Origin: Psammoneis japonica
Lineage: Eukaryota
Length of the DNA stretch: 64,000 nucleotides
NCBI GenBank assembly: GCA_008632985.1
Contig: QPGO01000192.1
Coordinates: 1-64,000, forward strand
Direction of reading: 5' to 3'
The position numbers were made by a program, and so were the translations under genes. The notes beneath the pieces are model-generated. The model worked only from the letters and a program-made list of their open reading frames with translations, made no database searches and was not told where the DNA came from. Below, in pieces: positions 1 to 62,140 of this stretch; position 1 is the first letter of the stretch; each line of letters begins with the position of its first letter.

Positions 1-391
1 TTGTCTCCCTCCACTCCCAAACTCCAGAGAGTCAAAAACAGTTTCAAAAGTTTTTTGCTGTGCCTTGCAGAGACAGGTGTTCGAAGATTGCCAGCATGAT
101 GATGTGCCCAATGGTCCAACAACAATGCCGATTGATGTTTTGCCCACAAGCCTTGAGACGAGCAGAAAGAGCAACACTGCACTGGGGCTGGACTTGGCAA
201 CAACAATGGCCAGCTGGTTGAGAGCAACAAAGCACAGCACAATCAGAGGTGGTGTGCCAAAATGCTGAAGCAAAAGATCTGCCAAAAGCAGAGCATGGCC
301 AGACTGGCCAAAAGTCCTGTTGATGACATGAAGCTTGCTCAGCAAATCTTTTCAAAGGACAGTTGTCTCACCAACATGATGCGCCCCTTGC

Positions 392-787
392 GACGCATTC
401 CAGACGCAGGTGGGAATCCGTGTGACATCGGGCCCGTAGACTTCTGCGTGCGAGCTCTGCAGCAAAATTGCACGGCAATTAAAACGCCAATGATCGCCAA
501 CAGAAAATGAGGCAATTTTGCGAATGCACAAACTCGCACATGATTGAAGTGCATCATTTTTTGCTTGGCCAGTTGCACTCTTCAGACATTGAAGAATGCA
601 ACTGGCGCATTGTTGTTTCTGCAAATTTGTCACACAAAACGTCTGGGGCTTTGCAAAACAGCGAGTCTGGACAATTTTTTTTAAATGTCACACGTAGAAA
701 TCTACGTGCGAAATGTGCGACGGATGACAAAAATCATTGTTGTCACACGTCAGTGCTGCGAGCTCCCACCTGGGGCTGGAATGCGTC
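392..787 (+). mobile_element. MITE family A copy (GACGCGTTCCAG-type TIRs, 4-bp TSD)
   Basis: Termini GACGCATTCCAG...CTGGAATGCGTC; TSD TTGC at 388-391 and 788-791; near-identical to 34593-34988. Confidence 0.85.
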
Positions 788-1296
788 TTGCTTTGGCTCA
801 TCAAAGAAGGGTGGGTGGTGCTGGTGGACAGACCCCAGTGAAAGAGCTGTTCAACACGCAGCTGTTGTTGGACACATGCGTGGTTGTGCACGTGATTCAA
901 AACATTCACTCGCCGGGGTGCCAAATCAAAAATTTGGGGCTGCTCTCATTTCATCAAGTGCTGTGAGTCACTCGCCACAAATCGCTGTGCAAATCACCTG
1001 CAATCAACTGGCAAGGACACCTTGTGCAGCTCCAAATGATTGGCGAAGCAGATTCTTTCAGTGGAAGACCATTGCCCAATGTCAAGCATGTCTGTGCAAT
1101 CAGTTTGTGTGCTCAAGATGTGCGCCAGTGTCAAACAGGGCAGGAGACAGAGATTGTCTCTTTTCTTCATGCTTTTGCCGTGGTTTCTATTTTTTAACAC
1201 TGTGAAGCACACACGCAATCATAAAAACAGCGGAGCAAAGAATGATGAGAAAAGATCCAGCCGCGAGCCTCTTCTGAAAGGCGCGCGACGGATGAA

Positions 1297-1403
1297 GTCA
1301 GTCAGTCTTTCAGTCAGTCAGTCTTTCAGTCAGTCAGTCTTTCAGTCAGTCAGTCTTTCAGTCAGTCAGTCAGTCTTTCAGTCAGTCAGTCTTTCAGTCA
1401 GTC
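1297..1403. repeat. Compound (TCAG)n/TCTT microsatellite
   Basis: Runs of TCAG interrupted periodically by TCTT. Confidence 0.95.
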
Positions 1404-1511
1404 GTGGATGTCAGCTCGCATGAGGAGAACTTCCAAATCGCCGCTTTTCTTGACACGAATTCTCATCGCCACTATGAAAACGATAAGTGATATCTCCATT
1501 CTTTGACCGCC

Positions 1512-4453: not shown

Positions 4454-5013
4454 CCAGAAGATGAAAGGCAGTCAACTAGTCAACCATTGTCGCTTCGAGA
4501 TCTACAGTACCGGTACCGGTATGGAGAAGTTAAGATCCGGATCTAATTTTAGCAGATTTTGAGTTGATTTTGAACTTTTTAGTTTCCAGTTTTTTGCATT
4601 TTCTTGCACACATTTGTATCTGCGAGCTCTGAGCTCTCAGAAACATCTCCCGAAATCCCACTTCGACATCCAACACAAGGAATGGACGAGAGCCTTGTGA
4701 AGAGGATGCACCGTGTCGTCACAAGCAAAACTCCTGTACAATTGTTCAAGACTGACAGTGGTTGCATGACTGGTGTTGAACAGCTGCCTTCTGTTGCCAC
4801 AGGGGCAATGTTCCAGAAAAAAGCATGCCCCACGCACACGAGCCTTCGTGGGCGCAATCTTTTCGGCAGTTTTGAGAGGAGCTGCTGTCTCTGTCATGCA
4901 GAGTTTCTGGCAGCAGCTGAATTTCCAGCCAATGTTGGAGAGCCCACAAAACACACAAGCACTGAGAAAGTGGCAGAGTCGTCAAAACTCAAAACCCCAG
5001 CACAAACGCCAGA

Positions 5014-5415
5014 GGCGTGCTCCAGCAGACGCAGGTGGGAATCCGCGTGACATTGGGCCTGCAGAATTCTGCATGCAAGCTCTGCAGTAAAACTGTCAGG
5101 CAATGAATGTGTCAATGATCGCCAACAGAAAAAGAGGCAATTTTGCGAATGCACAAACTCGTTGATGATTGAAGTGCATCTTCATTTTTTGCTCAGCCCA
5201 ATGGCGCGCTCTTCAGACATTCAAGAATGCTGTTGTTCCCACAAATGTTTCAAATAAAATGTCTGGGGCTTTGCAAAACAGGCAGTGTGGAACACATTTT
5301 TTTATGAAAAAACATGTGAAAATGAGCGTGCTGTGAAACATGTGATGGATGACAAAAAACAATTGTGCCACAAGTTGGCACTGTGAGAGCTCGTCCCACC
5401 TGGGGCTGGGACACC
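5014..5415 (+). mobile_element. MITE family A, degenerate copy
   Basis: Aligns by eye to 392-787 (GACGCAGGTGGGAATCC...CCCACCTGGGGCTGG); termini decayed. Confidence 0.75.
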
Positions 5416-6475
5416 ACGTCACCACTTTGTTGAGTGTGGTGCCACACGGGCTGGCAAGAAGGAGGGAGGAAAGAGTTGCAATTGCCAGCACTGTCAGGAA
5501 GTTTGGAAGAGATTGCACAGCACTTGACAAATCAATGTCTTGAAAGAACTTTCCTCCTCAACATGGGGGGTGGCTTCTCTGAGAGAGCCACCTGCCGCCC
5601 CACACAGAAAGCTGGTGGCACAGCCTGGGGCCTCCTCTCCCCAACAAGGGGTCTGGCAGGCACACAAAGCAGTGAAACAGCTCTCCTTTCTCAAACACAA
5701 AACAGTGCATTTTTCCATCCAGCTTTGGCTTTGGGGTGTCTCAGCTTTTTGAAGCACCCCCCATTCAGTCTCATGCAGCAGAGGTGCGCACAGAGAAGCT
5801 GTGGCTGGCTCACAATTTTTTGAGCTCCTCTGGATCTTGCTGCCCTCCTGCCCCCCAAAGTCCTGTCAGTGGTGGACAGTGCTGACAGCCAGTTGGGGCT
5901 TGCACCACTCTCTGAAGCAGACTGCAGTGGCCCTTGATGCTGCAGAAGGAAATGCTGCTCCTGCAGCTCTTGGGCTCTGAGGCCACTGCTCTGTGAAGGA
6001 CAACAAGACTTGGTCACACTATGATTCACAGATCCAAGTATTTTTCCAATTGTTGCAAAGGCACTCACTCACTTTGGTCATTGCAAAGGACTTTGAGGCT
6101 TGACTTGTGATGAGCATGATGGAAAACCACAATGTCTTCACTCTAATTTTTGTCATGCAGAACTTCTGAGATGTCGAAGCCGCCTTCATGCAACATTGCA
6201 TTGCTAATAAGACCAAGTGACTAGAGAACGAATTATCTAAAACCTTAAATTCATGCAGTGTCTTCCACTTAAATCTACCTACTGTCTTCCTCCCATGCAT
6301 CGCAAACAAAATGAATCTGCCGTGACATCTTGTTGAACGTACTTAATGTGGAATTGATATTCTGACCAGACTTGGTTCAGCAATATTTCGTGCCTAATCC
6401 AAGTGGTTTCTGTGTATAATAATCCTTGATGAGAATAGAAGTCACCTTTTGCCATGGCATGAAATACAAGTGCCT

Positions 6476-8394: not shown

Positions 8395-10194
8395 GGACTC
8401 CCACTGCTCGAGTGTGGGTGGGCCTAAGTAATTCTAAAAACCGTTAACGGCCGTTACTATGTAATTTGGTAGTATTTTGGTACTCTATATATGAGGCATT
8501 TATGTAGAAATTACGTACGTACAATTAATAGGGGAAGCGAGCGTGGAGAAGAGACGACGCGAGCGAAGCACGAGCGAAGAGACCGACAATGATGCAAGTG
8601 CCGGAGAGAGACGCAAAGACAGCAATCCAACGATGTTGCAAGAGGGCGCAAAAGAGAGAAAAGATCTATTTGAGTTAGTACCATATCTTCAATAAAAAGA
8701 ACAAAGCAAGACAACATTGGTGTGCACAAAAACTTGCACAGAGAAGCACGGCACCAGCGCCTGAAAAATGACCACATCTGTGGTGAAATGGAACAACACA
8801 AGGAGGTGAGAACATACTTTTCTACAAATACAAAGCAACAACAAGCAAACGACCAATGTAAACTCACCAGTAGGGTCAAAACTTGGGGTGCCTGGATCGT
8901 CAACGGCGGGCAGGGAGGACAGATGGAAGAGAGGCAGTCTGGTGGTTCCGCGGAGCAGGACGACAAAAGCAGGCGGCAAATCGGCATGAGGCATGAGCAA
9001 TGGCAGAAAGTCAGTGCTTGGGATTGAGTGACTCGTCCAGTCCATAAAAGTTGTGGCAGCAGCTTGGAGAACGGAGGCAGCGCCATGGTGGACGGCATGG
9101 ACCGGGGCAGAAGCAGCGCGCCATGGTGGGGTGACGGAGCCAAAAACGGTGACGGCGACGGTGTAGACCCATGGACTTCGACATCCCCATCTTCGAGTCC
9201 TGCACATCAAGATCCCCATCTTCAAGTCCTGCACATCAAGATGCGGGACAAGGAGGTTCAAGGTGAGTGCCACCGCGAATGAGAGCGGGGGAAAATGAGA
9301 CTTGATTCCACGAGAATCAGAGCTCACCACATTTTGAGTCATTCTGACCCATTCTAGAGCCGTGGCTCACTCACATGGCACGACCCAATGGCGTGCAACA
9401 CTGTCAAGCAAGGTGGGGGTCGGGAGGCGGTGTCGCACCAGTCAAACTGGCCAAAAGTGCCATTGTCGGAGGGAGCGGTGGTTGTCGATCGGCCGCTCGG
9501 AAAAATTGTGAGCCATCAACTCGACCGCGCACCGTCAGGAGTCGAACAAAATTTCTTGGCACAAAATGCACACAAATGTGCGTCAGCATAAAAATGGTGT
9601 AGAAGGGTTGCAAGTAGAGCCGTTGCTGTCTCCATGTAGACTGCAAGGATTCTGCCGTCAAACTGTGCCAACACGCACAATTCCACGTGGTCGATTTGAA
9701 TCAATCCCACCAACGTTTTTGAATTTCGATCGCAACAACGGCTTTAGGTGCTGAGATGAATGTGACACACAAGTTTGAATTAAATGTCATGCACAGTGTC
9801 AACAATTTTGAATGATTGCGCGACTGCCAGTCGGCACCAAAAACCATCGCCAACAAGCAAACCTGCAGCACAAAAGCACTCTTTGCGATGCTTTGGCACT
9901 TCACTCTTGCACATGAAAGCGCTCCCCAAGCAGTTGACGGTCGAATTACACACGTGAAATCCTCACAGCGGGAGACCCCATGCAGGCTCCCGTGTGCACT
10001 CAACGCGCCTCGGTTGGGACCTTCTCGTTGGGTCAGCCCAAACGAGAAGGCCACACGACAAGCTGTGGGTCATTCTTGCCATTGTGCAACCCGCCTCGTT
10101 GGTCTCCACCTCATTGCTTGGACCCTTCTTGTCGGGTTTGGCGGGGCCGAACCCTCCTGTCGGGCTCCACAAGTGCACAGGGCGCGCACCCACA
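8395..10194 (+). mobile_element. Repeat family C, complete 1.8 kb unit
   Basis: Starts GGACTCCCACTGCTCGAGTGTGGG and is followed head-to-tail by a second copy at 10195; third copy at 44817. Confidence 0.85.
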
Positions 10195-12285
10195 GGACTC
10201 CCACTGCTTGAGTGTGGGTGGGCCCAAGCAATTCTAAAAACCGTTGAAGGCTGTCACTGTGTAATTTGGCAGTGTTTTGGTGCTCTGTGCATGAGGCATT
10301 TATGTGGAAATTACGTGCATACAAACATTGGGGGAAACGAGCGTGGAGAAGAGACGACGTGAGTGAAGCACAAGCGAAGAGACCGACAATGATGCAAGTG
10401 CCGGAGAGAGATGCAAGGAGAGCAATCCAACGACATTGCAAGGGCACAAAAGAGAGGAAAGATCCATTTGAGTGAGCACCATGTCTTCAACAAAAAGAAC
10501 AAAGCAAGAAGACATTGGCGCGCATGAAAACTTGCACAAAGAAGCACGGCACCAGCGCCTGCAAAATGACCACATCTGCGGTGACATGGAACAACACAAG
10601 GAGGTGAGAACATGCTTTTCTGCAAATGCAATGCAACAACGAGCAAACGACCAATGGAAACTCACCAGTGGGGTCAAAACTTGGGGTGCCTGGATTGTCA
10701 ACGACGGGAGGAACGACGGATGAAAGAGAGTCTGCTGGCTCCACGGAGCAGAACAACAAAAGCAGGCAGCAGATCGGCACGAGCAATGGCAGAAAGTCAG
10801 CACTTGGGATCAAGTGACTCGTCCAGTCCACAAAAGTCGTGGCAGTGGCTTGGAGAACAGAGGCAGCGCCATGGCAGGATGGCATGGACTGGGACAGAAG
10901 CAGCGCGCCATGGTGGAGCGGCGACGGAGCCAAAAACGGCGACGGCAATGGTTTGGACCCATGGACTTCGACACCCCCATCTTCAAGTCCCACACATCAA
11001 GATGCGGGACAAGGAGGTTCAAGGTGAGCGCCATTGCAAACGAGAACGGGGGAAAACAAGACTTGATTCCGTGAGAATCAGAACTCACCACATTTTGAGT
11101 CATTCTGACCCATTCTAGAGCCACGGCTCACTCACACAGCACGACCCAATGGCGCACAACACTGTCAAGCAAGGCAGGGGTCGGGAGGCGGTGTCATGCC
11201 GGTCAAATCGGCCAAAAGCGCCATTGTCGGAGGGAGCGGTGGTTGTCGATCGGCCGCTCAGAAAAATTGTGAGCCATCAACTCGACCGCACACCATCAGG
11301 AGTCGAACAAAATTTCTCAGCGCAAAATGTGCACAAATGTGCGTCAGCATAAAAATTGTGTAGAAGGGTTGCAAGTAGAGCCGTCACTGTCTCCATGTAG
11401 ACCACAAGGATTCTGCCGTTAAACTGTGCCAATGTGTGTAATTCTACGTGGTCGATTTGAATCAATCCCACCAACGTTTTTGAATTTCGATTGTAATGAC
11501 GGCTTTAGGTGCTGAGATGAATGCAATGTGTAAGTTTGAATTAAATGTCATGTGTGGCATTGAGGCACAAACACAACGAGCGCACAGTGGGCAATGTCAG
11601 ACAGGTGACATCGTGCATTTTTTGCGATTTGTGCGACAAATTGCCGTCGACACCGACGATGACGATGACACTTTTCAGATGCTCTTGGAGGACGACTTTG
11701 CAACAGGCACTTAACATGTTAATCAACAACACCACAATGAACACATGTGCGTCAAGAAAGTCCCCCGGACGAACTCTCAATCGTGCCACAATCGAGTGCA
11801 TCAAACGATGGTCGAAAAATTGAGCTCGGCATTGGCACGATGTTTTGCTTTCAAACGGAGGCTTCTCCCGGGGACTTTCATGACTGAATGCATTCTTAAA
11901 CTTAACAAACTAAATGTCCACAATGCCCAAACAGTCGAGGACATGTCGCTGTTGTTGTTGTCGTAATGACAACGCACCATCGTCATGTCGCCGATTTTCA
12001 GCAATGATGCGTGTAGCGTGCACGAAGTTTCCAGCACAAAAAAAAATCTGGAAGTCGAATCGTCTTGTCATCTCTTGCACGGTTCTGCGATTGCCTCAAC
12101 AATTTTGAATGATTGCGCGACTGCCAGTTGGCACCAAAAACCGTCGCCAACAAGCAAACCTGCAGTGCAAAAGTGCTCTTTGCGACACTTTGGTGCTTCA
12201 GTCTTGCACATGAAAGCGCTCCCTGAGCAGTTGATGGTTGAACCATGCACACAAAATCCTCGCCAACAGAAACCCCTTCCTGTGT
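10195..12285 (+). mobile_element. Repeat family C, second (3'-truncated) unit carrying an insertion
   Basis: Colinear with 8395-9980 apart from the 11564-12095 insert. Confidence 0.8.
11564..12095. mobile_element. Small non-autonomous insertion GGCA...TGCC
   Basis: Absent from the other two C units, whose empty site reads TCAA; flanked here by TTGA and TCAA. Confidence 0.6.
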
Positions 12286-12619
12286 TGACATTTGTCTCCA
12301 AGGCCATTGTCACAATTGCCATTGTCATTCACAGCAGCATTGCTGGCAGTGGCAGCAGCAGCCAAGCAGTTCCATGAGTTGACATTTCTGCCTCCAGCAC
12401 CATTGTCGACATTGTCCTTGTCCAAAGTCCTGGGCAAGAGTGCTCTGTGAAAGAGGTTGAGCACGAGCATGTGTGCACAACAACAACAAACAACAACAAA
12501 CAGCATGATGGCAGCAGCAGCAATCCCGGTGTGTCAATGATTTTCACAATCAGTCAGCATGTTTGACTCGTGCAACAACAACATGTGGAATCAACCACAG
12601 AATGTCCACAGCAATGAAC

Positions 12620-13016
12620 GACAGGCTCCAGTCCTGGGCGGGACTCCATGTGACATTGGGCCCACAGAATTCCATGTGCAAGCTCCGCATTAAATTTGTC
12701 AAGCAATGAAAATGTCAATGATCACCAACAGAAAAACAATCACACAAACGCATCTCCTCCTTCACACTTTGAGCACATCATCAATGGTTTGCCCGGGTGT
12801 GCTCTGCAGACATGAAAGAACACACCCAGAGCATTTTCACTCTCATGAATGTCGAAAATAGAAAGCCTTTGGCTTCGCAAAATGGGGAGCATGAAACAAT
12901 TTCGTAGAATGTCACACGCAGAAATCCATGTGCACGACATGCCATGCAATCCAAAAAACTCTGATGTCGCAGTGCAGTGGTGCAAGGTCCCACCTCTGCC
13001 AGAGCTGGAACATGTC
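12620..13016 (+). mobile_element. MITE family A-related copy (subfamily of 33111-33507)
   Basis: GACAGGCTCCAG...CTGGAACATGTC; flanks GAAC/AAAC; reverse-complement match to 33111-33507. Confidence 0.75.
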
Positions 13017-47700: not shown

Positions 47701-47803
47701 CAAGTCAAGTCTTTTTCAAGCCAAGTTCCAAGTCAAAACTCCGAGTCAAGATCGCGCTCTAGATTGGATCCTGTCTTTTGTTTCTACTGCACCGTCCTCT
47801 GTC

Positions 47804-49417: not shown

Positions 49418-50921
49418 TCCCTGAAGGCTTGCACCTTGAGACTCGTTTCTCCAATTGGATCAGTCTCTCAGGAGATGCAGCTGAGCTTGCAATCAGATTG
49501 GTGGAACACAAGACCACCGCTTGTGCCTTTGAACTCATGCTTGCTCTGTTCCCGAGTCGTGCAAACGCCATGCCGCCTGCAATGTTGCCCCGCCGTTCAA
49601 CATTGTCAACCAGACCAAGCTTTGCTCCTTCCATTGCAAGTGTGGATGTGGAATCCCACAAGATCCCAAGTGTGCCTTGAGCTTTGAAAAGCACAACGGC
49701 ATCTGCAATTGGGGAGACGCAGCTCATCTCAAGATGACCCACTTGGAGAATGCAACGTTGCTCTTGGATCTTGATCCTTTCTTGTCTCCTCATGTTTTGG
49801 TGCTTTGACTCCAAAGTTCTTCAGTCAATCTGAAGTCGAATCTGTTTCTGTGACTCCTCAAGCAAACTGGGGAGTGACAGGATTTGAACAGGATTCAGGT
49901 GCGCGCGAAACATCGCGCGCTGTTCAGTTTGCCGCGCACAGTTTTGTGTGCTTTAGTTCCGCGTTCGCGCGTGATGCAGTTTGCTTTCGAGCCACAAGGC
50001 TCACAAGAACAATGACAGTGGCCCGATTGCACCGACTTGCACGTCTTTCGGCTCCTGTGACGGTCTCTGAGCGGAGACTCATCTGCCATTTAGACAGCAG
50101 CAAGGAGTTGTTGTTTGAATTCTTGCCATTTGCCTTCAATTTCTGTCACCATGAGTGCACAGGGTGCGCACCTGCAGAACTTGGCTTCGCCGGATGATCT
50201 GCCGGTGTCATTGACCACTCAGTGGTTGGTGATTGCAGACTTTTTCGTGTCGGTCCGGCAGTCGGGCAGTCGGGCAGTCGGGTTGTCCGTCTGAATTTGA
50301 AAGTGTGTCCCTCGGATTTTGGAACGGGATGGGTTGTTTAGTACAGATGAATTCTTCGGATTCGTAGAATGATCATTGAGGACATGAGAGGTCGTGGGGA
50401 CATCCTAAAAAATCGATAAATTCCCTACGACGGGTACGTGGCACGGTTTTTCAGGAGAGCTCGAAAGTGCTGTAAAATTGGGATTGCCGGCGTGGCATGT
50501 TCAAAAATGTATTCAGTTATAAACAAGATAATTAATCGTGAATTCTACACGAAACAGTCATATTTGGGAAAACATATCGAACAATAAGTGAGTTTGTGCG
50601 ATGCGCTATTATGGCGATAAATTGGAAAAAAAAGAGTGTCCGTGCACCTCGCTACAGCCCCAAAAATGGCATGAGACATCAAATATAACGGTCATCCGCG
50701 TCACCGGTGCGGTGGCCACGCCACTCAGCCGCCACAATACCGGCCCCGGCGGTAGGGCCCTACGTACGTACAGACAATACAGCATGCAACGGCACACACC
50801 CACCCACAAAAGCGAAAGACAAGTGGTCAATGCTCCCCGCAGGCCTGGTATTCTTGAGACAGAAAAATGGCGGCGCTCGGCGCTGCATTTCCACGCCACT
50901 ACTTGTCCTGAACCAGACGCA

Positions 50922-51818
50922 ATGGAAAGGGAGGGCATCTTGTACTTTCAGGACGCTGTTCCTGTCGACAGAGCTACCTCTGCGTTGCATATGAACGAAG
51001 AATCAGGCGATGATGCGTTCTCGCTGGCCTTTTTCAATCTGGCGAATGCCAAGCACGTTGGCTATCGGCTCGACCAAACAAAAACAAGAAAGAAGAATCA
51101 GAAAGTCAGAATTGTTGTCAAACAAGATACGGGAGCTTGTGGCAATCATACAGGAGGTATCGTGTGGGAAACTTCATATCTGCTGCTAGAATATCTCTTG
51201 TCGCGGAGAAAGAAGCTCGGACGACTTTTGGAGGTGGGAGCCGGGTGTGGAATGTTGGGATTGGTACTTGCCGGTTCTGGTTGGTGCAAGCGAGTGGTGT
51301 TGACGGAAACAACAGAGGTAATGGAAAATTTAAAAGAAAACACCAATAAAAATGAGAGTGTCTTGCTGAAAAAGAATAAGAAGCATGTTGCGGTTGCAAG
51401 AAGGCTTCGGTGGGACCATTGCAAAGAAGACGTTGCGTCTCATCCAAAAGATCTGTGTCCACATTCTTTCGATACAATTGTAGGAACAGACGTGGTCTTT
51501 ACTCCGAAGCTAGTGGAGCCTCTACTCAACGCACTCCAACTTATGGCTCATGAGAAAACAGTTGTGTATCTATGCTTACAGGTACGATGTCCTGACTCAC
51601 ATGGGCTCCTGCTCGAGAAAGCACGAGAATATCGATTCCAGGTCACTGAAATAACATCTGACTTGGCATCGATACCAACCTGTACATGGGGGTTAGACAT
51701 GGAGTGTCGTCTCTTGCGCTTGACGGTTATATCGAAGATCGAGAAGGCGTCAAGAAAACTGGAAAGCAAGGAAGCTACTGAGAGCCGGACGAAGAAACAT
51801 AAGAAGCAAAGAAATTGA
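50922..51818 (+). CDS. Protein-lysine methyltransferase, METTL21/Methyltransf_16 family
   Basis: TGGIVWETS, LLEVGAGCG, LRW and DTIVGTDVVF. Start uncertain, since the ORF is open from 50601. Confidence 0.85.
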   Translation: MEREGILYFQDAVPVDRATSALHMNEESGDDAFSLAFFNLANAKHVGYRLDQTKTRKKNQKVRIVVKQDTGACGNHTGGIVWETSYLLLEYLLSRRKKLGRLLEVGAGCGMLGLVLAGSGWCKRVVLTETTEVMENLKENTNKNESVLLKKNKKHVAVARRLRWDHCKEDVASHPKDLCPHSFDTIVGTDVVFTPKLVEPLLNALQLMAHEKTVVYLCLQVRCPDSHGLLLEKAREYRFQVTEITSDLASIPTCTWGLDMECRLLRLTVISKIEKASRKLESKEATESRTKKHKKQRN

Positions 51819-51936
51819 TTGACACATAAATCGCACAAGACATTTTAAAATATAGTTAATTCAAAAAATAAAACGTGAAACAACCATGTGTACCCCGACA
51901 GATTTCCCAAAATGCGCATAGATTCTCAAGAATGCA

Positions 51937-53544
51937 TTACTCTCCTACTCCCCCACTGTTGGCTTCCTTCAGGAGTGCTTGTAATTCGGCCGTCTGTCTC
52001 TTGACTTCATCCCTCATGCCCTGCCGTTCCCGCTCCAAGACACGAAGCATGGCTTCCTTCATTCGTTTCAATTCTTCTCGGGCTCGGTCCCGCTCTGCCC
52101 GAACCGCGCGTTCCAGCATTTGCTCTGTATCACGCAGCTGGGCCTTGAGATAGCTTGTCGTGGATGCCTGTGCCGACAAGTCACTCTGGACTTCTTGTAA
52201 CTACAAGATCATACGACACATGCGAGTAAGTAAGAGTACATACTACCTGCAACACGTTGCAGCAACACATATGCACACAATTACATACCTGCCAACTGGA
52301 TTTTTCGTATTCACGTTCCATATTGTCCCGTTCCCTTTCGGCCCGTTGCACCCGCACCAAGAGCGAATCCCGTTCTTCTAAGAGCTGCTTCGCCGATGGA
52401 ATCTTGGCGCGATTCCCACCACTCGGCACCATTTGGACAATTCGTTCCAAAAACTCGGGACGACGGAATTTCGGCACGGAGGACGACGAGGAGAATCGAA
52501 TCCATCGCTCTCGACGTAATCATCACTGTCGAGTGCTTCGTCATAACTGGATTCACCAAACAGAGCGTCGTCAACGTCCTGCATTGTGTCTTTGGAAAGA
52601 CCTTTTTGTGGAGCAATAACGATTTGATCAATATTGCAATTCCGAGAAACTGTACCGGAGGGTGGAGGTGATAAAGGTTCGAACCTTTGGAAAGATTGGA
52701 AGCAAAACAGCCATGGGTGCAGAAAAGGAATCTCGTACTTGTTGTCGCATCAGACGTGCCTGTTGTTGTCGTTCCAATCTCCGTTCTGCCAGGGCTTGAG
52801 CCTTTTGTTCCCGTTGCAACTTTTTAGCAGCAATACGTTCTGCTACAGCTGCAGCCTTTTTCGCTTGCTCCGCCTTTTTCGCAGCCATCCTTTCCGCCGC
52901 CTGTTGAGCGCGTTGTGCCTTTTTCTCTTCTTCCGCCTTTTTTGCAGCTAGCCTATCAGCCGCCTTTTGGGCTCGTTCAGCCTCGGCTCGTTCTTTTGCA
53001 GCCATCTTTGCGGCTTGTGCTTCTGCGGCCATCTTTTCGGCACGTTCTTTTGCGGCAATTTCCATGGCTCGTTTCTCGGCAGCCATTTTTTCGGCTCGTT
53101 CATTTGCAACGACATCTTCTCTAGATTCGGTCGGTACCTCAGGCTCTGGCGTTAAATCCAGTTCTGGCGATAGTAATTCCAAGTCTGAATCATAATCTGT
53201 TTCAAGTCGCTCTGTACAGCATCAGAATACTCTTCTTCTTCGTCTTCTTCAAATTGCGCCAGCGGATCCTTCCACCAATTGTCCTTTTCTCTCCACGCTG
53301 CATCGTCATTGTCGTTTTGTGTTGCCGGCTGAGCTGCTGGTGGTGGTGGTGCTACAATAGAGTCATCGAGAAAGAGGCTCTCGTCGAGTTCTTCAATATC
53401 CTCCAACTGCAAATCATCATAGTTCTGTGGTGATACCGCAGAAGCAATCAATTTTGCTGTACTTCTGGCAGCTTCTCCTCCCAGAGCTGACGTACCAACC
53501 ATGCTTGCCGTCAACAAGGGACGGACCCATTGTAACGCAGGCAT
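51937..53544 (-). CDS. Acidic/Ala-Lys-Glu-rich coiled-coil protein of unknown function, with an intron and apparent frameshifts
   Basis: Consecutive coding-like segments in different frames; intron 52201-52288 (GTATGT...TGTAG). Confidence 0.55.
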
Positions 53545-54264
53545 TCTGGGTTGTCAAATACTAGCTCAACACAATTTTCAGATTCTGAAAAATATCCTCT
53601 GGAATCTCTGATTGACGAAAACTTCTTATAAAACAACACCTGCTTTTCTGCTTTCCACACCAATCCAATATACACGATGTTGTCTGTAGCGGCACTGTCA
53701 AGACGCAAAACACGACAGAGGTTCGGGATAGGGAGTGATGGTTGGCTACATAAACAGCACAAAGTCACTTCAACTGTTGCGTTGGAGGGATGCGATGTTT
53801 TGGCGCGCTGCCAATTTTCTACAGCGATTTTGTACCAGAGCTTGCGTGGTCCTGGATAAGAAAGTGGATAGCAATGCATGAAATGAAATACATCAAAAAT
53901 GTATACATTTTATTCTCATCACTTTTTGCGAAATTTCGAAATCCCGTGTATGTGTTTCTTTATTCAACTATGCATTTATGTAGCAATTAGTAAATAAGGC
54001 GGTCTAAGAACTTTATTGATTTATCTCCGACCACAAAGGACAAATATTTGGTTATAATATAACATCTGTTGATAATAATTTTAATGTTTTAGTTGTCTTA
54101 CTCCGCGTGGCAGTTGAGAGCTCAACGGACAGCCAAGCGCCCGGACGACGGTCGAGCGAAAGAAACTAATAGTCGAATTAGTCGTCATGGGATGTTTTTG
54201 GCGAGAAAAATCTGTCGGCGGTCGGCGGCGGCGATGTGACATGTTGTGACAATTTGCCATCACC

Positions 54265-56125
54265 ATGAGATTCTTTGCCGTTATGCGGTCCTTGGCGCTC
54301 GCCATTACACTATCAGTGGCAGTGGCCTTCCAGCCATATAGTCTTAAACGAACGCGTCTTGCTCTGAGTCGCAGCAGGTGAGTTTCAAGCGCAAAAAGCA
54401 TCATCGGAACAAATTGTTCTTTTTGAAAACCTCACATACTGTATGTTTCTTTCTCACTACTATTCCTTTTTTTTAAGACCAACACTCCATTCATACAATG
54501 ACAATTACACTCCTGTAGAACCGCCACCATCCCAGATTGAATCGATTCGCGAAAACGCCAAGCTCCTTCTTCCCATCAAAAAGGGCGAAACCGTGTCAAG
54601 TGTGAGCGAAAAGCTCATGAGAGCGACACTGGCAGGCATGGCGGTGGCTCTCGCCATGATTCCCGAAGGCGTGGCGTTTTCATTCTTGGCAGGAGTTGAC
54701 CCCCTGAAGGGACTGTGGACCACTGTCTTTTTGGGTTTTATAGCAGCTTCGTTTGGTGCACGGCCAGGGATCTGTTCGTCCTGCTCTGGGGCTGTTTCCG
54801 TTGTGATTGCCAGTCTTTGTCGTCGACACGGGCCTGCGTACTTGTCGGCGTGTGCCATTTTGGCGGGACTATTACAAATTGCATTTGGTACTGCGGGTTT
54901 GGGACGATTCATCAAGCTCGTGCCACATCCCGTCATGCTGGGATTTGTCAACGGGCTTGCGATATTAATGACCAGATCACAGCTGGCGGCATTTTCGGGG
55001 ATTGCATGGAATTCACCAGAGGGTATTGCTGCATATGGGCTCTGTGGATTTACCATGGCACTTGTCAAGCTCATACCGAAAATGAAAAAGAAATTACCAC
55101 CGACACTGACGGCTGTAGCGATAGCAACCTTGGTAAGTCGGTGTCTAGAGTTGCCCGTCATGACACTGGCACACCTTGCAGGAGCGGATACCTTTGTGGG
55201 TGGAAGAGCAGTCTTGCCAAAGTTTGGTCTCCCCGACGTGCCACTGTCGGCGCATACAATAAGCATTGTCATGCCGTATGCTGTGACTGTTGCATTGGTC
55301 GGATGTCTAGAGAGTTTACTCACAAAGCAATTGTTAGAGGGTATTTTGGACAGTGACGGAAAGACAGGATCCAATGGGCTCGAGTGCAGTGCTCAGGGAG
55401 CAGGGAATATTTTGAGTGGTTTGTTTGGAGGTATTGGAGGGTGCGCACTCTTGGGACAATCGATTATCAATGTTGAAAATGGTGGAGGCGAAAGTCGATG
55501 GTCTGGCATGAGCATGGCGCTGTTTCTTGCGACTGGGATTATTGCGTTTGCGCCGGCGCTCGGAGCTGTACCACTTGTAAGCTTGGTCGGAGTCATGCTG
55601 CTTGTTTGCTATTCCACCTTTTCGTGGTCATCGTTGCGTATGATTAACAAGATTCCAAAACTGGACGCGGCAATCATTGCGCTGGTGTCGTTTGTGACTG
55701 TGCAAAAGGACCTGGCGAGTGCGGTGTTTGCCGGCACGATTGCGAGTGCGCTAGGATTTGCCTGGAAGCAATCCACAAGTCTCGTTGCGTCGTACGTCGA
55801 AGTGGATAACCGAAAAATGTACAAATTGACAGGTCCACTCTTTTTTGGCAGCAGCGGAAAATTCGCACAATTGTTCGACCCAAAGGGGGATCCAAACAAT
55901 ATTATTGTAGACTTTGCTGACTCGCGTGTCATGGATCATTCTGCGCTGGAAGCAATAAATAACCTTGCCAGCGATTATGGAAGTCTGGGGAAAACGGTTT
56001 ATCTGACACACTTGTCGGATGACTGCAGCTCACGTCTCGTGAAACTCTTCCCAAACTCTGAACTACCACCCCATCAAGTAATCTGGGACGACCCTTCGAC
56101 AGATCCTGTCTATCAAGTTGCATAA
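54265..56125 (+). CDS. SulP/SLC26 anion transporter with STAS domain, probably plastid-targeted
   Basis: Exon 1 (54265-54377) is a signal peptide ending AVA-F; intron 54378-54477 restores the frame. Motifs ALAMIPEGVAF, PHPVMLGFVNG, GPLFFGS and DHSAL. Confidence 0.92.
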
Positions 56126-56684
56126 AATAGGAAGAGTCGCCGTGAGGATGTGCTTGAGGCGTCATGGGGCAACAGTTGTTGTTGTCGCTATGTCTACCTT
56201 CTTTTCCATGTTTATTTATAAGAAGTAGCTATTTGGTGAACTGTGTAGAGAGTGTACCTAGAGACTATTGGACAGTAAAATAATGGTTTGCGATGCTACA
56301 GTAGCTACTGTAGAGACTCCTCCTCTCTAAAGCAAGATGCAGTAGTACGATGTAGGGCCCTAGGGCCCTATGTACTCAGTACGCGCACTTTAAAATTAGT
56401 CGAAGGGTTCGAACCGAAGGCCACGTCATTCATATCATCGGAAGATCTGCATGCAAGATAAAAAATGCTATTGCCCTTCATTCGTGTAGAATCTTAGTAA
56501 GACAGTAGTACTATGACGTATGCATGTGTGATGATGCGATTTCGTTTTTTGGACCACATCTTCATCTGACCACCGCATTTTCTGCACACGTTGTGGAGCG
56601 TTCGGAACGGCGGTCAGCTGCCATCGTATCCTCACAATTCTGTGGTTAGCACTGGTTGTCTTAGCTTTTTTTTTTATAAAAACA

Positions 56685-58377
56685 ATGGTGAAATACTCAA
56701 TCACAGCTTTCTTGGCAACAGCCGCACTGTCACAGGCATTCCAAACCTTGTCGACTCCCAGCAGGACAAGAAGTATAGGCGCGAGTCCGCGTCTGCAAGC
56801 TGTCGCTATCGGTGATGATGTAACAACGACAAGCCCTGTGATTAGTACTCCTACTACTGAAGAGGGTCGCACTGGAGCAATGATGGATTTGACTGGTATT
56901 GCCATGTCTGTGAGTTTTTGTGAACGTCGTCTCTAGTTGTAGTGGACCTGGAAGACAATGATTTTCTGAATTCTGATGCATTTGTTCTTTAAAAAAGTTC
57001 TGATGAATTTGTTCTTTCACTGACGATGCACGATTCTGCCAATTGTTATTTCGTATGTTTTGCACACTCATTTTCAATTCGTTAACATTACTGTACGTCT
57101 CAGGGTCTTAAAGGCAAAGCGCTTTCACTGACAAATGATGACTTCCCGATGGCCAACGAAGTGCGTAGTGTGATTCCAAAAGATTGTTTTGAACCGGAAA
57201 CAGCTAAATCGTTGGGTTACCTTAGTGTCTCTGTCGTTGGAACTGCGTTGTGTACTGCTTTCGGAGTTGGCATGCTGGGCGTACTAAATCCAGCCAACCC
57301 CTTGACGTGGCCAGTGTGGGCTGCATACTCGGCTGTCACTGGTACGGTCGCAATGGGACTTTGGGTTCTAGCACATGAATGCGGCCACGGAGCCTTCTCC
57401 AAGAACAAGACTCTGCAGGATGCTGTTGGTTACATTATTCATTCTGCAATGTTGGTTCCCTACTACTCGTGGCAGCGCTCACACGCGGTTCATCATAAAT
57501 ATACTAACCACATGGAGCTGGGTGAAACACACGTTCCTGAACCTCTCCAAGCTAAAGATGAAGGATCGTACGCATTGCGCACAAAGTTTGTCGACGCTCT
57601 TGGAAAAGAAAATGGTATGAAATTGTGGGGTGCCTATCAGGCGTTTATGCACCTTGTCGTTGGATGGCCCGCATACCTACTTATTGGGGCCACCGGGGGA
57701 TCTGCAAGGGGCATGACCAACCACTTTTACCCCGACCCACTCACTACCCCCGATATGCCAAAGAAAGAATTGTTCCCTGGCAACTGGAAGGAGAAAGTAT
57801 ACCAGAGCGATATTGGTATTGCTGCCGTCATTGGAGGATTGGCCGCATGGATGGCATGTGATGGACTTCCCGAAGTTATGGCAATGTACGGCGGCCCATT
57901 GTTGGTTATTAATGCCTGGCTCGTTCTCTACACTTGGTAAGCAAGTCTGCGCCTGCTGAATATCTTTGTTATGAAGAATTATTTCTCATTCTCTCTTTGT
58001 GACGTTAATAATTGGTAAGGTTGCAACACACGGACGTTGATGTGCCACATTTTTCAATCGACGACCACAACTATGTCAAGGGGGCTTTGCACACTATTGA
58101 CCGCCCTTACGACAAGCTTGACCCTTGGGGTGCAATTGACTTTTTGCATCACAAGATTGGATCGACACATGTGGCGCACCACTTTGATTCGTCAATGCCG
58201 CACTACAAAGCACAAGCTGCAACGGATGCCATCAAGGAAAACTTCCCTGAGTTGTACTTGTATGACCCTACCCCTATTCCGGAGGCTCTGTGGAGAGTGT
58301 GCAAGGGATGCACCTCTGTTGAGAAGCGAGGAGATTCATGGATTTGGAACAATGAGGGCCTTGAGGATCAGTTGTAA
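56685..58377 (+). CDS. FAD6: Plastidial omega-6 (delta-12) fatty acid desaturase
   Basis: Exons 56685-56909, 57104-57936 and 58020-58377 splice in frame. His boxes HECGH, HAVHH and HVAHH; leader SQA-F. The segment MMDLTGIAMSGLKG...VIPKDCFEP resembles diatom FAD6. Confidence 0.9.
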
Positions 58378-58938
58378 GCAACTCGACACGATAAGGGAAT
58401 GCGATCTTTTCTACAAATCAATTTTGCTTTAATAATGTAAAACAATAAAATGCTCTAAAAGAAACTTCGAGGAGACTCATGTTAGTTTATCGTAAGGCGA
58501 TGCGAGCTGCTGACGAATCCTTTGCCGCTGGTAAACACATACCCGTAACTATGAAATATCCGTCGGCTCCACACAGGTACATTGTGCCGACCGAACCGTG
58601 CATTGCGGTTTTAGCTATTTTCGGCACGTTTCTTGATCAGGCCTTTCGACGGAGAGACCTTTTCATCCAATGCATGCTGCTTCTTTGCTTGGGCAATAAT
58701 TCATCATAGTGTATTGAGCAAACCCGCCAAGAAGCTGATGACCACCATTAATCTACTCTTTGCTGTGCAAACTCAACAATAGAACGCAAATGACTTCTCA
58801 CGTCTTCTCAGATGTTGCAATTTTGGCGTTCATTAGTACATGCGCAGGAGGGCTCGATCCATGTCTAAAACATTATCTAGGTGCGTGCACAACGTGAGAT
58901 CCCAACCAAATCATTGGCATTGTCTCGTCGTCTACCTT

Positions 58939-59200
58939 TTAATACAGATGACTGACAAAGTTGCCACCAAGAATGATCAGAACTGCAAACACTAGCGCCA
59001 TTTGAATGGCATTACCACCAGATGGCGTGCCATTGCCGGTGCCGCCATTGTCCACGACCGGTGGCATAGTTGGCAAAGGTGCCGAGATTGCATCCGTGAT
59101 GGCGACAATCGCCTCGCCAAAGAGAGACTGTATGACAGTATTATTCAAGTTGTACGTTGGTAATCCTTGGTCCAGTCGAGTCTCAAAGTCGTTGGGAATG
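58939..59200 (-). pseudogene. C-terminal remnant of a membrane/GPI-anchored protein gene running into degenerate DNA
   Basis: Low-complexity linker plus hydrophobic tail and stop; upstream sequence is TpA-depleted and duplicated. Confidence 0.4.
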
Positions 59201-59644
59201 TGAAAAATCATGTGTGTGCAACTCACATGACTAAATCTTTCACAGTGACGTGTGCCAACTCAGAAGCAGTTTTTGAAATTGTCAACAACAGCAATCTGTG
59301 AACTCAGTCAAATGATGCAAATTGACCATGGCGCCTGCTTCAAAGAAGCTGGCAAGTGAACGGAATCCACTGACAAGCTCCATGGTTGAAAGTGTTGTTC
59401 AAGTTGTACGTTGGTAATCCTTGGTCCAGTCGAGTCTCAAAGTCGTTGGGAATGTGAAAAATCATGTGTGTGCAACTCACATGACTAAATCTTTCACAGT
59501 GACGTGTGCCAACTCAGAAGCAGTTTTTGAAATTGTCAACAACAGCAATCTGTGAACTCAGTCAAATGATGCAAATTGACCATGGCGCCTGCTTCAAAGA
59601 AGCTGGCAAGTGAACGGAATCCACTGACAAGCTCCATGGTTGAA
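59137..59644. repeat. 254-bp tandem duplication
   Basis: 59137-59390 and 59391-59644 are nearly identical. Confidence 0.95.
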
Positions 59645-62140
59645 TGATCAATCATGCCAGATGACCAGGAATGCAGTGCAGTTGTTTTCAGCTCAGAACA
59701 CAAAATTGGATGAGGGCAACACATGGAGCAGCGTGCTCTCAGCAGCCTGCATGAGCTGCAGCATGACACACTGCTGCTCAAGCAAGCCCAGTGCAGCCAG
59801 TGTTTGGCAGAGATGCTACGATGCAAAATGTCCCCCCTCCCACCACTTCAAGTGAAGGAAGACTTGGGTTGCAGAAAGCACAGGCTTGCACACATTGACA
59901 ACAAGAGTGAGAACTCCAAGTGTGCAGAGAGGAGTGCCAACCTGCAGCAGTGCAGCTGGCACTTGTTGAGCAGCAGGAGCACAAGAGACAACAAAATGTG
60001 AGACTGACCATTGCACCAGCCCTGCTTGAGTTGTCAATGTGAACAACAATGGCGCTCTTCATGCACAAGATGGAGCATTGATGAACATGCACAACCCACA
60101 GCAGACAGCACCTGGTCATCAGCAAGACATCCGGTGCTCCACACGGCCCTTGTCATGGGAGAGCATGTGCTGCACTGACTGACAACAGGCAGATGCTAGC
60201 ACATGTCCTTTGATGCAACCTTCTCAGAGACAGTCAGGCACAGATGCATGTGTTGCACCAGTCACAAGCGCGAACACAACTTGCACTTGCTCTGCTGAGC
60301 AGACATGTTGGGATCATGGTCAGCACCAGCTGTGAGCAAATCTTTGTTGTGATGAGGTTGCACACTTGACAACTGCCCCCCAAAGTTGTGCTGAGTGAAG
60401 GAAGACTGCACCTGCAAAGCTGCATGTCCTGTGATGTGCAGCCCTTGCTGAGCACCAAGATGAGCTTGGAGTGGGGCTCTTTGTTGAAGAAGCTCATTGC
60501 ACATGCACACACAGTTTGTGTGACTGAACAACTCCCAGCAAAATGTGCCAACTCAGAACCATTTCTTGTTGGGTGGGCTGCCCCCCATCAAGCCATCCAC
60601 CCAATTTGATGCACTGGAGTGCAACGCAAATGTTTCAAAAATGGTGACCTCCTGGTTTGCTGCTGACTGCTCCTTTGAACTTGGAAGTCAAATGCAATAA
60701 ATTGTCCACTTTGCTGGCATCAGCTGCCTTCTTTGATGATTTTTTTTGTGTTTGTGTGTGTGCTCTTAAGTTCAACACTCTTTTGACAACAGCCAAGGCT
60801 CAGCTGCTCTTCGCACTGTGTTTTTGCACAACAATGCACCAGAAAAGATCTTCTGAGACTCTCAGTGTGTGATGGGGGTTTCATCAGCACAGAACTCACT
60901 TTTTGCAACATCACAGACCCAGTGCAAAATTTTTGTGCAGGTTTTTGCACTGCAAGAAAAATTGTTTCAAAAGCAATTTTTGAACAACATTTGACACACA
61001 GAGCAAAAGTTGAAAAAATTGCAGGATGAGTTGTGCCTCCAGCACACTCTTTGGTTGCTGCAAACTGCAGCTGAGGACCTTTGCCATGTTGACGTGCACT
61101 CATTGTGCCAACAACTGATGTGCTTCAAAGCCTCTCCACATGTTGTTGTTGTTGGGCTGCATGTTGTAAAATGATGCTGCAGCGCGGCCATTTTTGCTTG
61201 CAAATGACTTCCCAAAAGTTCACTGGGAAATGGCATGACTTTGCAACAAACAGGGCTTGTTGGACTTGCAAAAAATTTTGGTGGAGTCAAGCACAAATGA
61301 AAATGTGGGCAGCCATGACAACGGCGGCCATGATGCAAAGATGCGTGCTCACAGACCACAAGAAGACATCCAAGGCACCACCACCTCACTTTGGTGCAAC
61401 AGCAATGACACACAGATTGTTTGCACTGACAAATGCCCCAAATGCACAGATGGACAGAATTTGTTCTAACAGCAGCTGTGTGAGGCCAAACCCTTGAGCA
61501 GAGGCAGGCTCACATGGCCAGATCATTGTGAAATGATTTTCATCTGAAAACCAGAGCTGGCAACTCAGCTTCTGTTGTGCCTTGATGAAACTCATGCATC
61601 ACCATTCATGCTGTGAATTTTGGTGAGGCCTTGTGCATTTGTGCCCTTTTGACTCACATGTGCGCTGTCTTCCCCCTTCTTGCTCCTCCTCGTTTGTTCT
61701 GTGTGTGGGGTCTCCCTCTTGCCGCGAGCTGTCATCCCTCTGGGACTGACTTCCTCAACAATTTTTTTCTTCTGCAGCAAAAGGGCCATGGCAATCCAAC
61801 AACAAGGCCAAGTGATGGGCACAGCATCGGCGCCAGTTCACAATGAATGTGGTGACTTGGAGCTGTCATTTTGTCGACACTCTGAAGCTGGACAAGCTCT
61901 CAAGGCACAGATTTGTCATCAAGTGATTTTGGCACAAATTTTGCATGCCTCTTGAAGGTGATGCGGAGTTTGATTTGACTGACCAAAGCACCATGGCAGC
62001 TCTGAAGGTCTGGGTTGACTCTTCTGGCTCCCTTTCAGTTTGTGGCCTGGAAAAAATGGGGGTTTTGGAATTACACGTGGAAGCACGGCGTTAGCAGCTG
62101 GCCAGACACATTGAACATCTCGAGACTCATTAGACACTGA
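59645..62140. other. TpA-depleted degenerate repeat/TE-derived block, family unassigned
   Basis: Almost no TA and an excess of TG/CA. The same texture occurs at 1-1260, 4600-6200, 12290-14860 and 19380-20560. Confidence 0.6.

Follow-up and report, generated by a model that had tools for sequence, protein, structure and literature searches.

Near-complete erasure of TpA dinucleotides from repeated DNA in a 64-kb window of the diatom Psammoneis japonica

Introduction

To our knowledge, the only repeat-directed point-mutation defences known before 2026 were fungal repeat-induced point mutation (RIP) and cytosine deaminases in animals. RIP is triggered by the pairing of repeats before meiosis and involves the methyltransferase RID. 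Here, a window of 64,000 nucleotides from Psammoneis japonica (GenBank assembly GCA_008632985.1, contig QPGO01000192.1, positions 1 to 64,000 of the forward strand) was analyzed, in which blocks of repeated DNA are almost free of the dinucleotide TpA (TA) and rich in TpG and CpA (TG and CA). An initial annotation, made from the sequence letters alone, had proposed that a process opposite to RIP erases TA from these repeats, and its author knew of no description of such a process.

Such a description exists. A 2026 preprint reports this signature arising de novo in Bigelowiella natans, where 231 of 302 nuclear mutations in mutation-accumulation lines fell in one integrated nucleocytoplasmic large DNA virus (NCLDV) region and one virophage region (Mettrop et al., bioRxiv 10.64898/2026.01.13.699255). 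As the preprint gives it, 230 of the 231 viral-region mutations were A>G or T>C, all stated to fall on TpA, at a rate of ∼6×10^-7 per site per generation, which is ∼1000 times background and was reached in only some lines. The same source lists 124 clusters depleted in TpA and enriched in CpA and TpG, finds low-TpA coding sequences (CDS) enriched in DDE and reverse-transcriptase domains, and proposes adenine deamination, naming an ADAT2-like candidate (10.64898/2026.01.13.699255). The text drawn on here holds nothing on diatoms or on flanking context, treats a link to methylation as speculation only, and states that ADAR favours U 5′ of the edited A (10.64898/2026.01.13.699255). Beyond that preprint, searches of open-access papers and bioRxiv turned up no account of hypermutation directed at TpA, in diatoms or elsewhere. 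A term look-up in the available text of a 2025 preprint on diatom transposable elements and of the Cyclotella cryptica genome paper returned no mention of such hypermutation, and a Phaeodactylum mutation-accumulation paper describes, in its available text, a GC>AT bias with CG, CC and TG as mutable contexts.

Results

Erased blocks alternate with normal DNA

Across the whole window the observed/expected (obs/exp) ratio is 0.30 for TA, 1.48 for TG, 1.46 for CA and 0.73 for CG, and the lowest 1-kb bins reach TA values of 0.02-0.08. For a comparison of composition, blocks were trimmed by hand to 36,323 bp of erased and 22,465 bp of gene-bearing DNA. The former hold 177 TA (obs/exp 0.08), with TG at 1.65, CA at 1.63 and CG at 0.57, and the latter 907 TA (0.58), with TG at 1.24, CA at 1.20 and CG at 0.96. 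Segmentation with a two-state hidden Markov model (HMM) on P(A|T) yielded nine erased segments totaling 38,812 bp, ∼60% of the window, with TA at 0.05-0.13, TG and CA at 1.5-2.0 and CG at 0.21-0.78, while the remaining segments have TA at 0.55-0.90 and CG at 0.77-1.5. Host genes and unique intergenic DNA lie at ∼0.55-0.66, and within the window the loss is confined to DNA that is repeated, as seen from copies in the window or from contig depth. The 1-kb bins, block composition and HMM thus agree with what the initial annotation had described, namely repeat blocks nearly devoid of TA beside genes of normal TA content, with CpG decay visible in the same blocks.

Two short low-TA calls inside genes were set aside. 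That at 15345-16153, in a gene for an FG-GAP protein, was rejected as erasure, as Tyr codons are kept, TG and CA are normal and the composition is that of ordinary coding DNA; that at 52850-53120 was likewise left out of the erased total. At block borders the TA density switches within ∼10-50 bp: the 400 bp to the left of 62071 contain no TA and those to the right 18, and at 33910 the counts are 0 on one side and 30 on the other. The nine erased blocks, several of which carry copies of a miniature inverted-repeat transposable element (MITE), are as follows; here and below, strand is given where one is assigned.

1 to 1466: erased block holding the MITE copy at 392-789 (HMM TA 0.08, CG 0.61; MITE alignment)
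4557 to 6202: erased block holding an old MITE copy at 5026-5412 (HMM TA 0.08, CG 0.30)
8876 to 11344: erased right part of repeat copy A, and copy B (10195-11556) (HMM TA 0.13)
11546 to 14647: erased block holding an old MITE copy at 12610-13019 (HMM TA 0.10, CG 0.53)
18902 to 20355: erased block holding a ferric-reductase gene fragment at 19150-19372 (HMM; gene-fragment comparison)
23726 to 33907: erased block with element copies c1 and c2 and, in c2, an erased MITE at 33111-33508 (HMM TA 0.06, CG 0.61; repeat map)
34300 to 35622: erased block holding the MITE copy at 34593-34990 (HMM TA 0.10)
36077 to 50338: largest erased block, with element copy c3 (CDS 41075-44383), repeat copy C (44817-46556) and high-copy repeats (HMM TA 0.09, CG 0.65)
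59164 to 62071: erased block with the strongest CpG decay, ending 70 bp before a host gene (TA 0.05, CG 0.21, TG 1.98, CA 1.81; border profile)

TpA is moderate (0.55-0.59) in two small islands within this erased DNA, 35628-36060 and 11350-11542. Contig depth marks the first of them, which is AT-rich, as high-copy. At the edge of the most CpG-depleted block lies a direct tandem duplication of 258 bp (59133-59644, 98.8% identity).

A decayed exonuclease repeat has lost its tyrosines

The erased DNA includes a unit of ∼5 kb that the repeat map finds three times in the window (c1, c2 and c3). Its coding regions are decayed.

24657 to 27952, plus strand: decayed coding region of c1, with an exonuclease domain and a C-terminal part without recognised domain (tblastn with P0124, P0125, P0128 and P0129; Pfam DNA_pol_A_exo1)
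30333 to 33897, plus strand: the same coding region in c2, broken by an N gap and MITE insertions and carrying an in-frame stop (tblastn)
41075 to 44383: the same coding region in c3 (tblastn with intact relatives)

The assembly gap in c2 is a run of 186 N (31538-31723), and three MITE copies are inserted in c2 alone. Intact relatives of the encoded protein are ∼1,050 residues long, the family ranging from roughly 1,050 to 1,600 (P0124, P0125, P0128, P0129, P0133), and the only recognisable part is a 3′-5′ exonuclease domain of the WRN/RNase D type, found by Pfam, by PDB sequence search and by Foldseek run on a whole AlphaFold model (mean pLDDT 74.7) of P0124, one of the intact relatives. The rest of the protein contains strongly conserved motifs and had no match in Pfam or in the whole-model Foldseek search; in some relatives a Ulp1 protease or DUF6729 is present as well. 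The product looks like an unclassified mobile-element protein, and the evidence supports no label beyond "mobile-element-like repeat". The initial annotation had spoken of transposase frames without Tyr and full of Cys and His. Its reading of the residues stands, in that the 376 residues of the open reading frame (ORF) at 24630-25757 include 1 Tyr, 18 Cys and 13 His, while the transposase label goes beyond the evidence, the exonuclease domain being the only one recognisable.

Tyr sites were defined by the aligned intact relatives, of which no fewer than two and no fewer than half had to have Tyr; the three copies together provide 87 such copy-sites. Tyr is retained at none of the 87; Cys stands at 40, His at 20, Phe at 11, Trp at 6 and other residues at 10, and the Cys and His codons are TGC (22), TGT (18), CAC (11) and CAT (9). 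Control residues were retained far more often (Phe 133/193, Trp 39/47, Cys 34/41, His 50/73). One Tyr site reads TGC in c1 and CAC in both c2 and c3. The catalytic residue is among those lost: the ExoIII Y-x3-D motif, aligned to EYAASD of NanoRNase C, reads HAALD, HAVLD and HAALD in the three copies, as the initial annotation had noticed and the alignment of the copies confirms, and His thus replaces a residue that is Tyr in 73 of 82 homologues. With Y-x3-D missing from all three copies, c1-c3 are dead descendants of a DEDDy exonuclease gene, and erasure destroys coding capacity by turning Tyr, the catalytic one included, into Cys or His.

Some database relatives carry similar marks. P0199, P0255 and P0262, all fragments, are Tyr-free and rich in Cys and His, and P0122 is partly erased, its ExoIII motif being HCCALD; these four may represent erased copies, whether from this organism or from others. 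Distant relatives of the exonuclease protein were also located in metagenomes, at 18 loci, and none of these shows erasure (TA obs/exp 0.39-0.82); the contig of the closest intact relative is not among them.

An intact MITE and its erased relatives

Six copies of a MITE family of ∼400 bp, with ∼24-bp terminal inverted repeats (TIRs) and 3-bp target site duplications (TSDs; TTC or TTG), are present in the window, and one of them has kept its TA.

392-789, 5026-5412, 12610-13019, 33111-33508, 33897-34264 and 34593-34990: MITE copies (MITE alignment)
33897 to 34264: TA-intact young MITE inserted into erased c2 (29 TA; TA obs/exp 0.93, CG 1.70)

The insertion site of the intact copy is empty in c1 (27798-27801) and in c3 (44229-44232), and it is therefore a young insertion. 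Read in the copies at 392-789 and 34593-34990, its 29 TA sites are TG in both at 8, CA in both at 7 and discordant, TG in one and CA in the other, at 7; three sites are kept in both copies, three in one, and one is GA in both. Discordant outcomes of this kind are what independent hits on an ancestral TA predict. Alone, the copy at 34593-34990 is changed at 24 of the 29 sites. The copies can be ordered by their TA/CG values, from 0.93/1.70 through 0.18-0.21/1.03 and 0.15/0.89 to 0.10/0.5, the copy at 5026-5412 having TA at 0.10 and CG at 0.52. In this series TpA loss was essentially finished before CpG decay became noticeable.

Spared parts of repeats, a tandem array and a gene fragment

A repeat of 1.4-1.75 kb is present three times (A, B and C), and a 400-bp terminal piece is likewise found in several copies. 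Both include a spared stretch, and the erased DNA also holds a tandem array.

8395 to 8871: spared TA-intact left part (477 bp) of copy A, adjoining host DNA (TA obs/exp 0.85, CG 0.98; alignment)
23173 to 23575: spared copy of the 400-bp terminal piece (TA 0.58; the erased copies at 28337-28736 and 35201-35576 each have TA 0.05)
48640 to 49306: tandem array of 42-bp units, 15.9 units, erased singly (TRF)

Along copy A (8395-9300), 25 of 32 TA sites are TG or CA in both B and C. The erased right part of A differs from B by CA/TG doublets, of which this pair has 21, which indicates that A and B were each erased separately. For the spared terminal piece, 10 of 12 TA sites are TG/TG or CA/CA in the two other copies. 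The paired strings by which the initial annotation had illustrated such differences were found where it had placed them, one at 8469 against 10269 (and also 44891), the other at 34225 against 751 (and also 34952).

The 42-bp array allows the outcome at one site to be read over 16 units. Unit position 36 is TA in 4, TG in 8 and CA in 4, and unit position 5 is CA in 7, TG in 6, TC in 2, TT in 1 and TA in none. A 572-codon open frame (47699-49417) spans the array, each unit of which corresponds to 14 residues. The last comparison involves a host gene. A 223-bp fragment at 19150-19372, inside a repeat block, copies the host ferric-reductase gene at 22019-22233, ∼2.6 kb away, with 80% identity; it arose either by gene-fragment capture or by local duplication. 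From gene to fragment there are four TA>TG and three TA>CA changes and no reverse change. The fragment has TG or CA where the gene has TA, so host-derived sequence is also erased once inside such a block.

The change is TA to TG or CA, and specific to that dinucleotide

Four lines of evidence, namely protein outgroups, intact versus erased copies, the 42-bp array and the host-gene fragment, indicate that TA is ancestral and TG/CA derived. Polarised comparisons accordingly run in the direction opposite to RIP, as had been proposed, and the notion that TG/CA might be the ancestral state is contradicted by outgroups, intact copies and fragment alike. Seven polarised comparisons were pooled to obtain context rates. 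Per strand, A>G changes occurred at 117/290 TpA (0.403), equivalent to ∼81% of TA dinucleotides changed, compared to 9/471 ApA (0.019), 6/310 GpA (0.019) and 27/362 CpA (0.075), the CpA figure being due to CpG decay in the reference copy. The same comparisons gave C>T at 48/316 CpG (0.152) and at 0.4-3.5% in other contexts; TpA loss is much faster than CpG decay in the same blocks. A>G rates are thus far from equal across contexts (40% at TpA, 1.9% at ApA and GpA), which bears out the suggestion that a second A:T>G:C process acted at TpA in repeats alongside CpG decay.

Mass balance gives the same picture. The four dinucleotides TA, TG, CA and CG together make up 0.2452 of the erased and 0.2465 of the normal blocks; within this sum TA falls by 0.0355 and CG by 0.0182, and TG and CA together rise by 0.0524, so that the gain matches the TA and CpG losses. 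Seventeen pair alignments contain 158 CA/TG doublets, against 28 for the next commonest double change, and no CG/TA pairs.

Strand symmetry, CpG decay and flanking bases

Erased blocks contain 3692 TG and 3747 CA. Strand-coordinated runs were absent from all six comparisons in which they were sought (6/6), TG and CA outcomes being interleaved as in shuffles. Symmetry and interleaving together give no sign of processive action on a single strand or of restriction to the sense strand. Taken with the TIRs and TSDs of the MITEs, they also speak against an RNA intermediate. CpG loss is found in every erased HMM segment and in no intact one. This co-location with erasure points to methylated, silenced chromatin; transposon methylation in diatoms is known for Phaeodactylum, from the part of that literature available to us. 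The spared parts of copy A and of the piece at 23173-23575 face host genes and end at an abrupt internal border, and targeting follows neither simply the element nor simply the region.

The residual TA of erased DNA depends on the flanking bases. Relative to normal DNA, the remainder is 0.62 for TTAA, 0.31 for CTAA/TTAG, 0.18 for CTAG, 0.14 for both GTAA/TTAC and CTAC/GTAG, 0.08 for ATAA/TTAT, 0.05 for GTAC, 0.026 for ATAG/CTAT, 0.009 for ATAC/GTAT and 0 for ATAT. A hand-fitted additive model reproduces these ratios without separating a 5′ from a 3′ effect. At polarised sites, read on the mutated strand, TA followed by C or T was changed at 42/82 and 38/68, and TA followed by A or G at 22/74 and 17/54, which suggests, tentatively, a rule favouring a 3′ pyrimidine. 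Trinucleotide gains in erased versus normal DNA were dropped as a test of flanking preference, being confounded by ancestral composition.

Separately assembled contigs carry the erased sequence

Four public runs, all belonging to a single sample and study from which the assembly itself probably stems, had been assembled separately into contigs, and these contigs, as distinct from raw reads, were used here. Summed contig depth is 150-750 and up to 10^5 on the repeats, compared to ∼55-65 on the unique part. Within this one sample, contigs match the erased stretches with 0-1 differences, and the erased sequence is thus carried outside the assembly, a point on which the initial annotation had allowed for artefact. 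The 40 best-supported variant rows include five CA/TG doublets, one TA>TG and many CpG differences, and at five places TA is retained in other copies. These variant classes, namely TA/TG and TA/CA differences, CA/TG doublets and CpG changes, are the same as those between copies within the window.

Host genes and open frames

Pfam identifies host genes for an LCM methyltransferase, a ricin-B lectin, an FG-GAP protein, a ferric reductase, a Lys-methyltransferase, a SulP permease, a fatty-acid desaturase and a DUF3605 protein, three of which lie in one spared region.

50339 to 59161: spared host region with Lys-methyltransferase (50592-51818), sulfate permease (54368-56125), fatty-acid desaturase (57086-57940) and intergenic DNA (TA 0.59-0.65, CG 0.89-1.03; Pfam)

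The SulP permease was the one gene searched for relatives. Diatoms account for all of its best named relatives (Seminavis, Fragilaria, Cylindrotheca, Nitzschia and others), with ∼60% identity, and the top relative overall has 72%; on this protein comparison the host is a diatom with no near relative sequenced in the database searched. TAA and TAG are gone from the erased DNA, where TGA is the only stop, and long open frames occur in all six frames. Among 145 ORFs of at least 100 residues in ∼36 kb of erased DNA, one has a Pfam match and the other 144 have none.

Discussion

The results make it highly probable that repeated or mobile DNA in this diatom underwent TpA to TpG/CpA hypermutation, nearly to completion and with adjacent genes spared, by a process that would be enzymatic, would act in place and would resemble a defence. 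The signature is the same as that arising de novo in the integrated viral DNA of B. natans. The finding opens no new category: a process with a single earlier description, from a distant alga, appears here in a second lineage and in far more complete form. Mechanistically, the change would be made by an enzyme on DNA in place, not by way of RNA, each TpA being struck independently on either strand. Adenine would be deaminated to hypoxanthine, which pairs as G, by a TadA/ADAT-type or other DNA-acting deaminase that requires a 5′ T and possibly favours a 3′ pyrimidine; we put adenine deamination forward, tentatively, as the most likely chemistry. Targeting may follow silenced, 5-methylcytosine (5mC)-marked or repeated chromatin, the activity may be episodic, and the effect would be a genome defence analogous to RIP and chemically its opposite.

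Several observations weigh against this account or narrow it. Abrupt borders within single repeat copies (8873, 23723) fit no targeting model. An intact MITE sits inside an erased block, so that the process was neither continuous nor simply regional, although a young intact insertion is compatible with episodic action. A trigger limited to duplicated DNA, as in RIP, agrees with the repeated nature of the erased DNA, yet repeat copies include spared stretches behind abrupt internal borders, and one of the MITE copies is intact throughout. Most outcomes are common to c1-c3 (5/6 Tyr sites) and to B and C, which implies that much of the erasure predates divergence of the copies and that erased DNA went on being duplicated, locally at least. 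Tyr codons after a purine, which are TA-pyrimidine on both strands, gave 28 Cys to 13 His, and the 3′-pyrimidine preference is unsupported there. Blocks with no intact counterpart, such as 59164-62071, are polarised by composition only, and the counts from intact/erased, Tyr-site and context comparisons share reference copies and ancestry and are not independent. Everything derives from one assembly and one sample in which no mutation event was observed, and the evidence for restriction to repeats comes from these 64 kb and from contig depth along 20 kb.

Among competing explanations, the one that survives best is that the erasure is a by-product and no evolved defence, the work of a modification or repair pathway confined to methylated heterochromatin and mutagenic at TpA. 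CpG decay in every erased segment (CG 0.21-0.78) and in no intact one would fit such a pathway, as would the continued duplication of erased copies. Nonetheless it appears unlikely, given a rate far above that of CpG decay and ∼20-fold above that at other A contexts, borders that are sharp to the base pair and sometimes fall inside one repeat copy, and the episodic, line-specific activity which the B. natans preprint describes and which suggests regulation.

A related proposal keeps the process and changes its chemistry. In dinoflagellate DNA, 5-hydroxymethyluracil takes the place of T, with a preference for TpA, and 5-formyluracil forms mispairs with G. A TET/JBP-type dioxygenase or another modifier might make 5-hydroxymethyluracil, 5-formyluracil or a further derivative at TpA, and mispairing with G or mis-repair would then give T>C; TpA is self-complementary, so A>G and T>C look identical in sequence. 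Nothing in the window speaks for thymine as the target, however, and the B. natans authors, in the preprint text available, favour adenine deamination with an ADAT2-like candidate. We regard this chemistry as quite unlikely and return to adenine deamination as the preferred one.

Far less probable is A-to-I editing of repeat transcripts by an ADAR- or TAD-like enzyme, fixed by reverse transcription. ADAR does share the preference for U before the edited A (10.64898/2026.01.13.699255, in the text available), but among the targets here are TIR-bearing MITEs flanked by 3-bp TSDs, as well as a tandem array and a gene fragment, both strands are equally struck with interleaved outcomes, and specificity for the preceding T is near absolute (0.403 versus 0.019). 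Moreover, Pfam found no reverse transcriptase among the 145 ORFs of at least 100 residues in the erased blocks. An artefact of sequencing or assembly, for example a modified base at TpA miscalled in repeats, is similarly very improbable: the runs do all derive from a single sample, probably that behind the assembly, and no platform is recorded for them, but separately assembled contigs repeat the erased stretches with 0-1 differences and show the same variant classes among genomic copies, and indels, MITE insertions and stops set the erased copies apart from one another.

The reverse polarity, in which TG/CA is ancestral, TA-rich copies result from RIP-like CpA>TpA change and CA/TG doublets stem only from CpG decay, draws on the fact that CpG decay is real and also yields CA/TG doublets (203 CG/TG and 164 CG/CA differences). 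It is nevertheless extremely improbable in view of the Tyr sites (0/87 kept, Cys or His at 60), the disagreement between erased MITE copies at 7 of 22 sites changed in both, the selected host gene that has TA where its fragment has TG/CA, and a pair with 34 CA/TG doublets where a simple hand-fitted model of CpG decay predicts ∼7. GC-biased gene conversion would match the slightly higher GC of erased blocks (0.501 versus 0.474), and so would an overall AT>GC bias in heterochromatin, but both are excluded by the dependence on context and by the unchanged summed frequency of the four pyrimidine-purine dinucleotides, and have practically no standing. Selection against TA and horizontal acquisition of TA-poor DNA were both rejected.

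TpA-specific A:T>G:C hypermutation has so far been reported, in the preprint text available, from one alga, on two viral inserts and with a modest long-term footprint. In the window the same chemistry has been driven almost to its end on repeats that resemble transposons, and this in a diatom, whose lineage is far removed from that alga and ecologically dominant. The process may therefore be widespread, and with it a way of disabling invading DNA. The window also supplies internal calibrations that constrain the mechanism, namely intact and erased MITEs, the array, the captured fragment, sharp borders and the flanking preference. There are practical consequences as well. Erased DNA fills with long false ORFs, which mislead gene callers and make real element proteins hard to recognise, and dating by divergence would greatly overestimate the age of erased repeats. 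For base-editing technology, too, a natural enzyme that edits adenine in DNA at a defined context would be of interest. A broader conjecture, possible although doubtful, is that diatoms and chlorarachniophytes have in common a dedicated TpA-erasing DNA-editing defence, hence old or widespread in stramenopiles, alveolates and Rhizaria (SAR), in which an adenine deaminase requiring a 5′ T (perhaps T-A-pyrimidine) acts in place, on both strands and in sharply delimited silenced domains, runs ahead of CpG decay and disables mobile elements by converting Tyr to Cys or His. If so, this diatom would be the most extreme known example, and its natural age series of copies a route to the enzyme and its trigger.

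Comparison with known systems

RIP and the erasure described here are both context-dependent transition hypermutations of repeats with sharp borders, affect both strands and inactivate coding sequences. RIP, however, is C:G>T:A, mostly at CpA, and creates TpA (RIPCAL, as far as its text was available), whereas here TpA is destroyed and GC rises. CpG decay through 5mC deamination occurs in the same blocks with the same products, TG and CA, but cannot remove TpA and is slower, with 15% of CpG strands changed compared to 40% of TpA strands. APOBEC3 and AID are likewise enzymatic hypermutators of mobile or viral DNA; theirs is C>U, usually on single-stranded intermediates and in strand-coordinated runs, unlike the pattern here. 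Adenosine deaminases (TadA/ADAT2-3, ADAR and fungal TAD) share the A>G change with U or T directly 5′ of the target A. TadA/ADAT enzymes target U33-A34, and early TadA-derived base editors prefer YAC (pyrimidine-A-C). In nature, however, such deaminases act on RNA, while the changes here are in DNA, on both strands and essentially at TpA only.

The closest system is that of B. natans, here too as given in the available preprint text. A:T>G:C change is confined to TpA in both and yields both TpG and CpA; it is confined to foreign, repeated or silent DNA, host genes being spared in the 64 kb here and the rest of the B. natans genome mutating normally. Each also has a long-term footprint of TpA depletion with CpA and TpG enrichment, low-TpA CDS in B. 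natans being enriched in transposon domains. The hosts differ, a diatom (Stramenopila) here and a chlorarachniophyte (Rhizaria) there, as do the targets: MITEs, an exonuclease repeat, a tandem array and a gene fragment, with no viral genes recognised, as opposed to NCLDV and virophage DNA. De novo events have been seen only in B. natans, while in P. japonica CpG decay coincides with the erasure and a flanking-base effect is visible. The extent differs as well, with TA obs/exp of 0.05-0.13 over ∼60% of the P. japonica window, compared to a Rho of 0.45 for the NCLDV region of B. natans.

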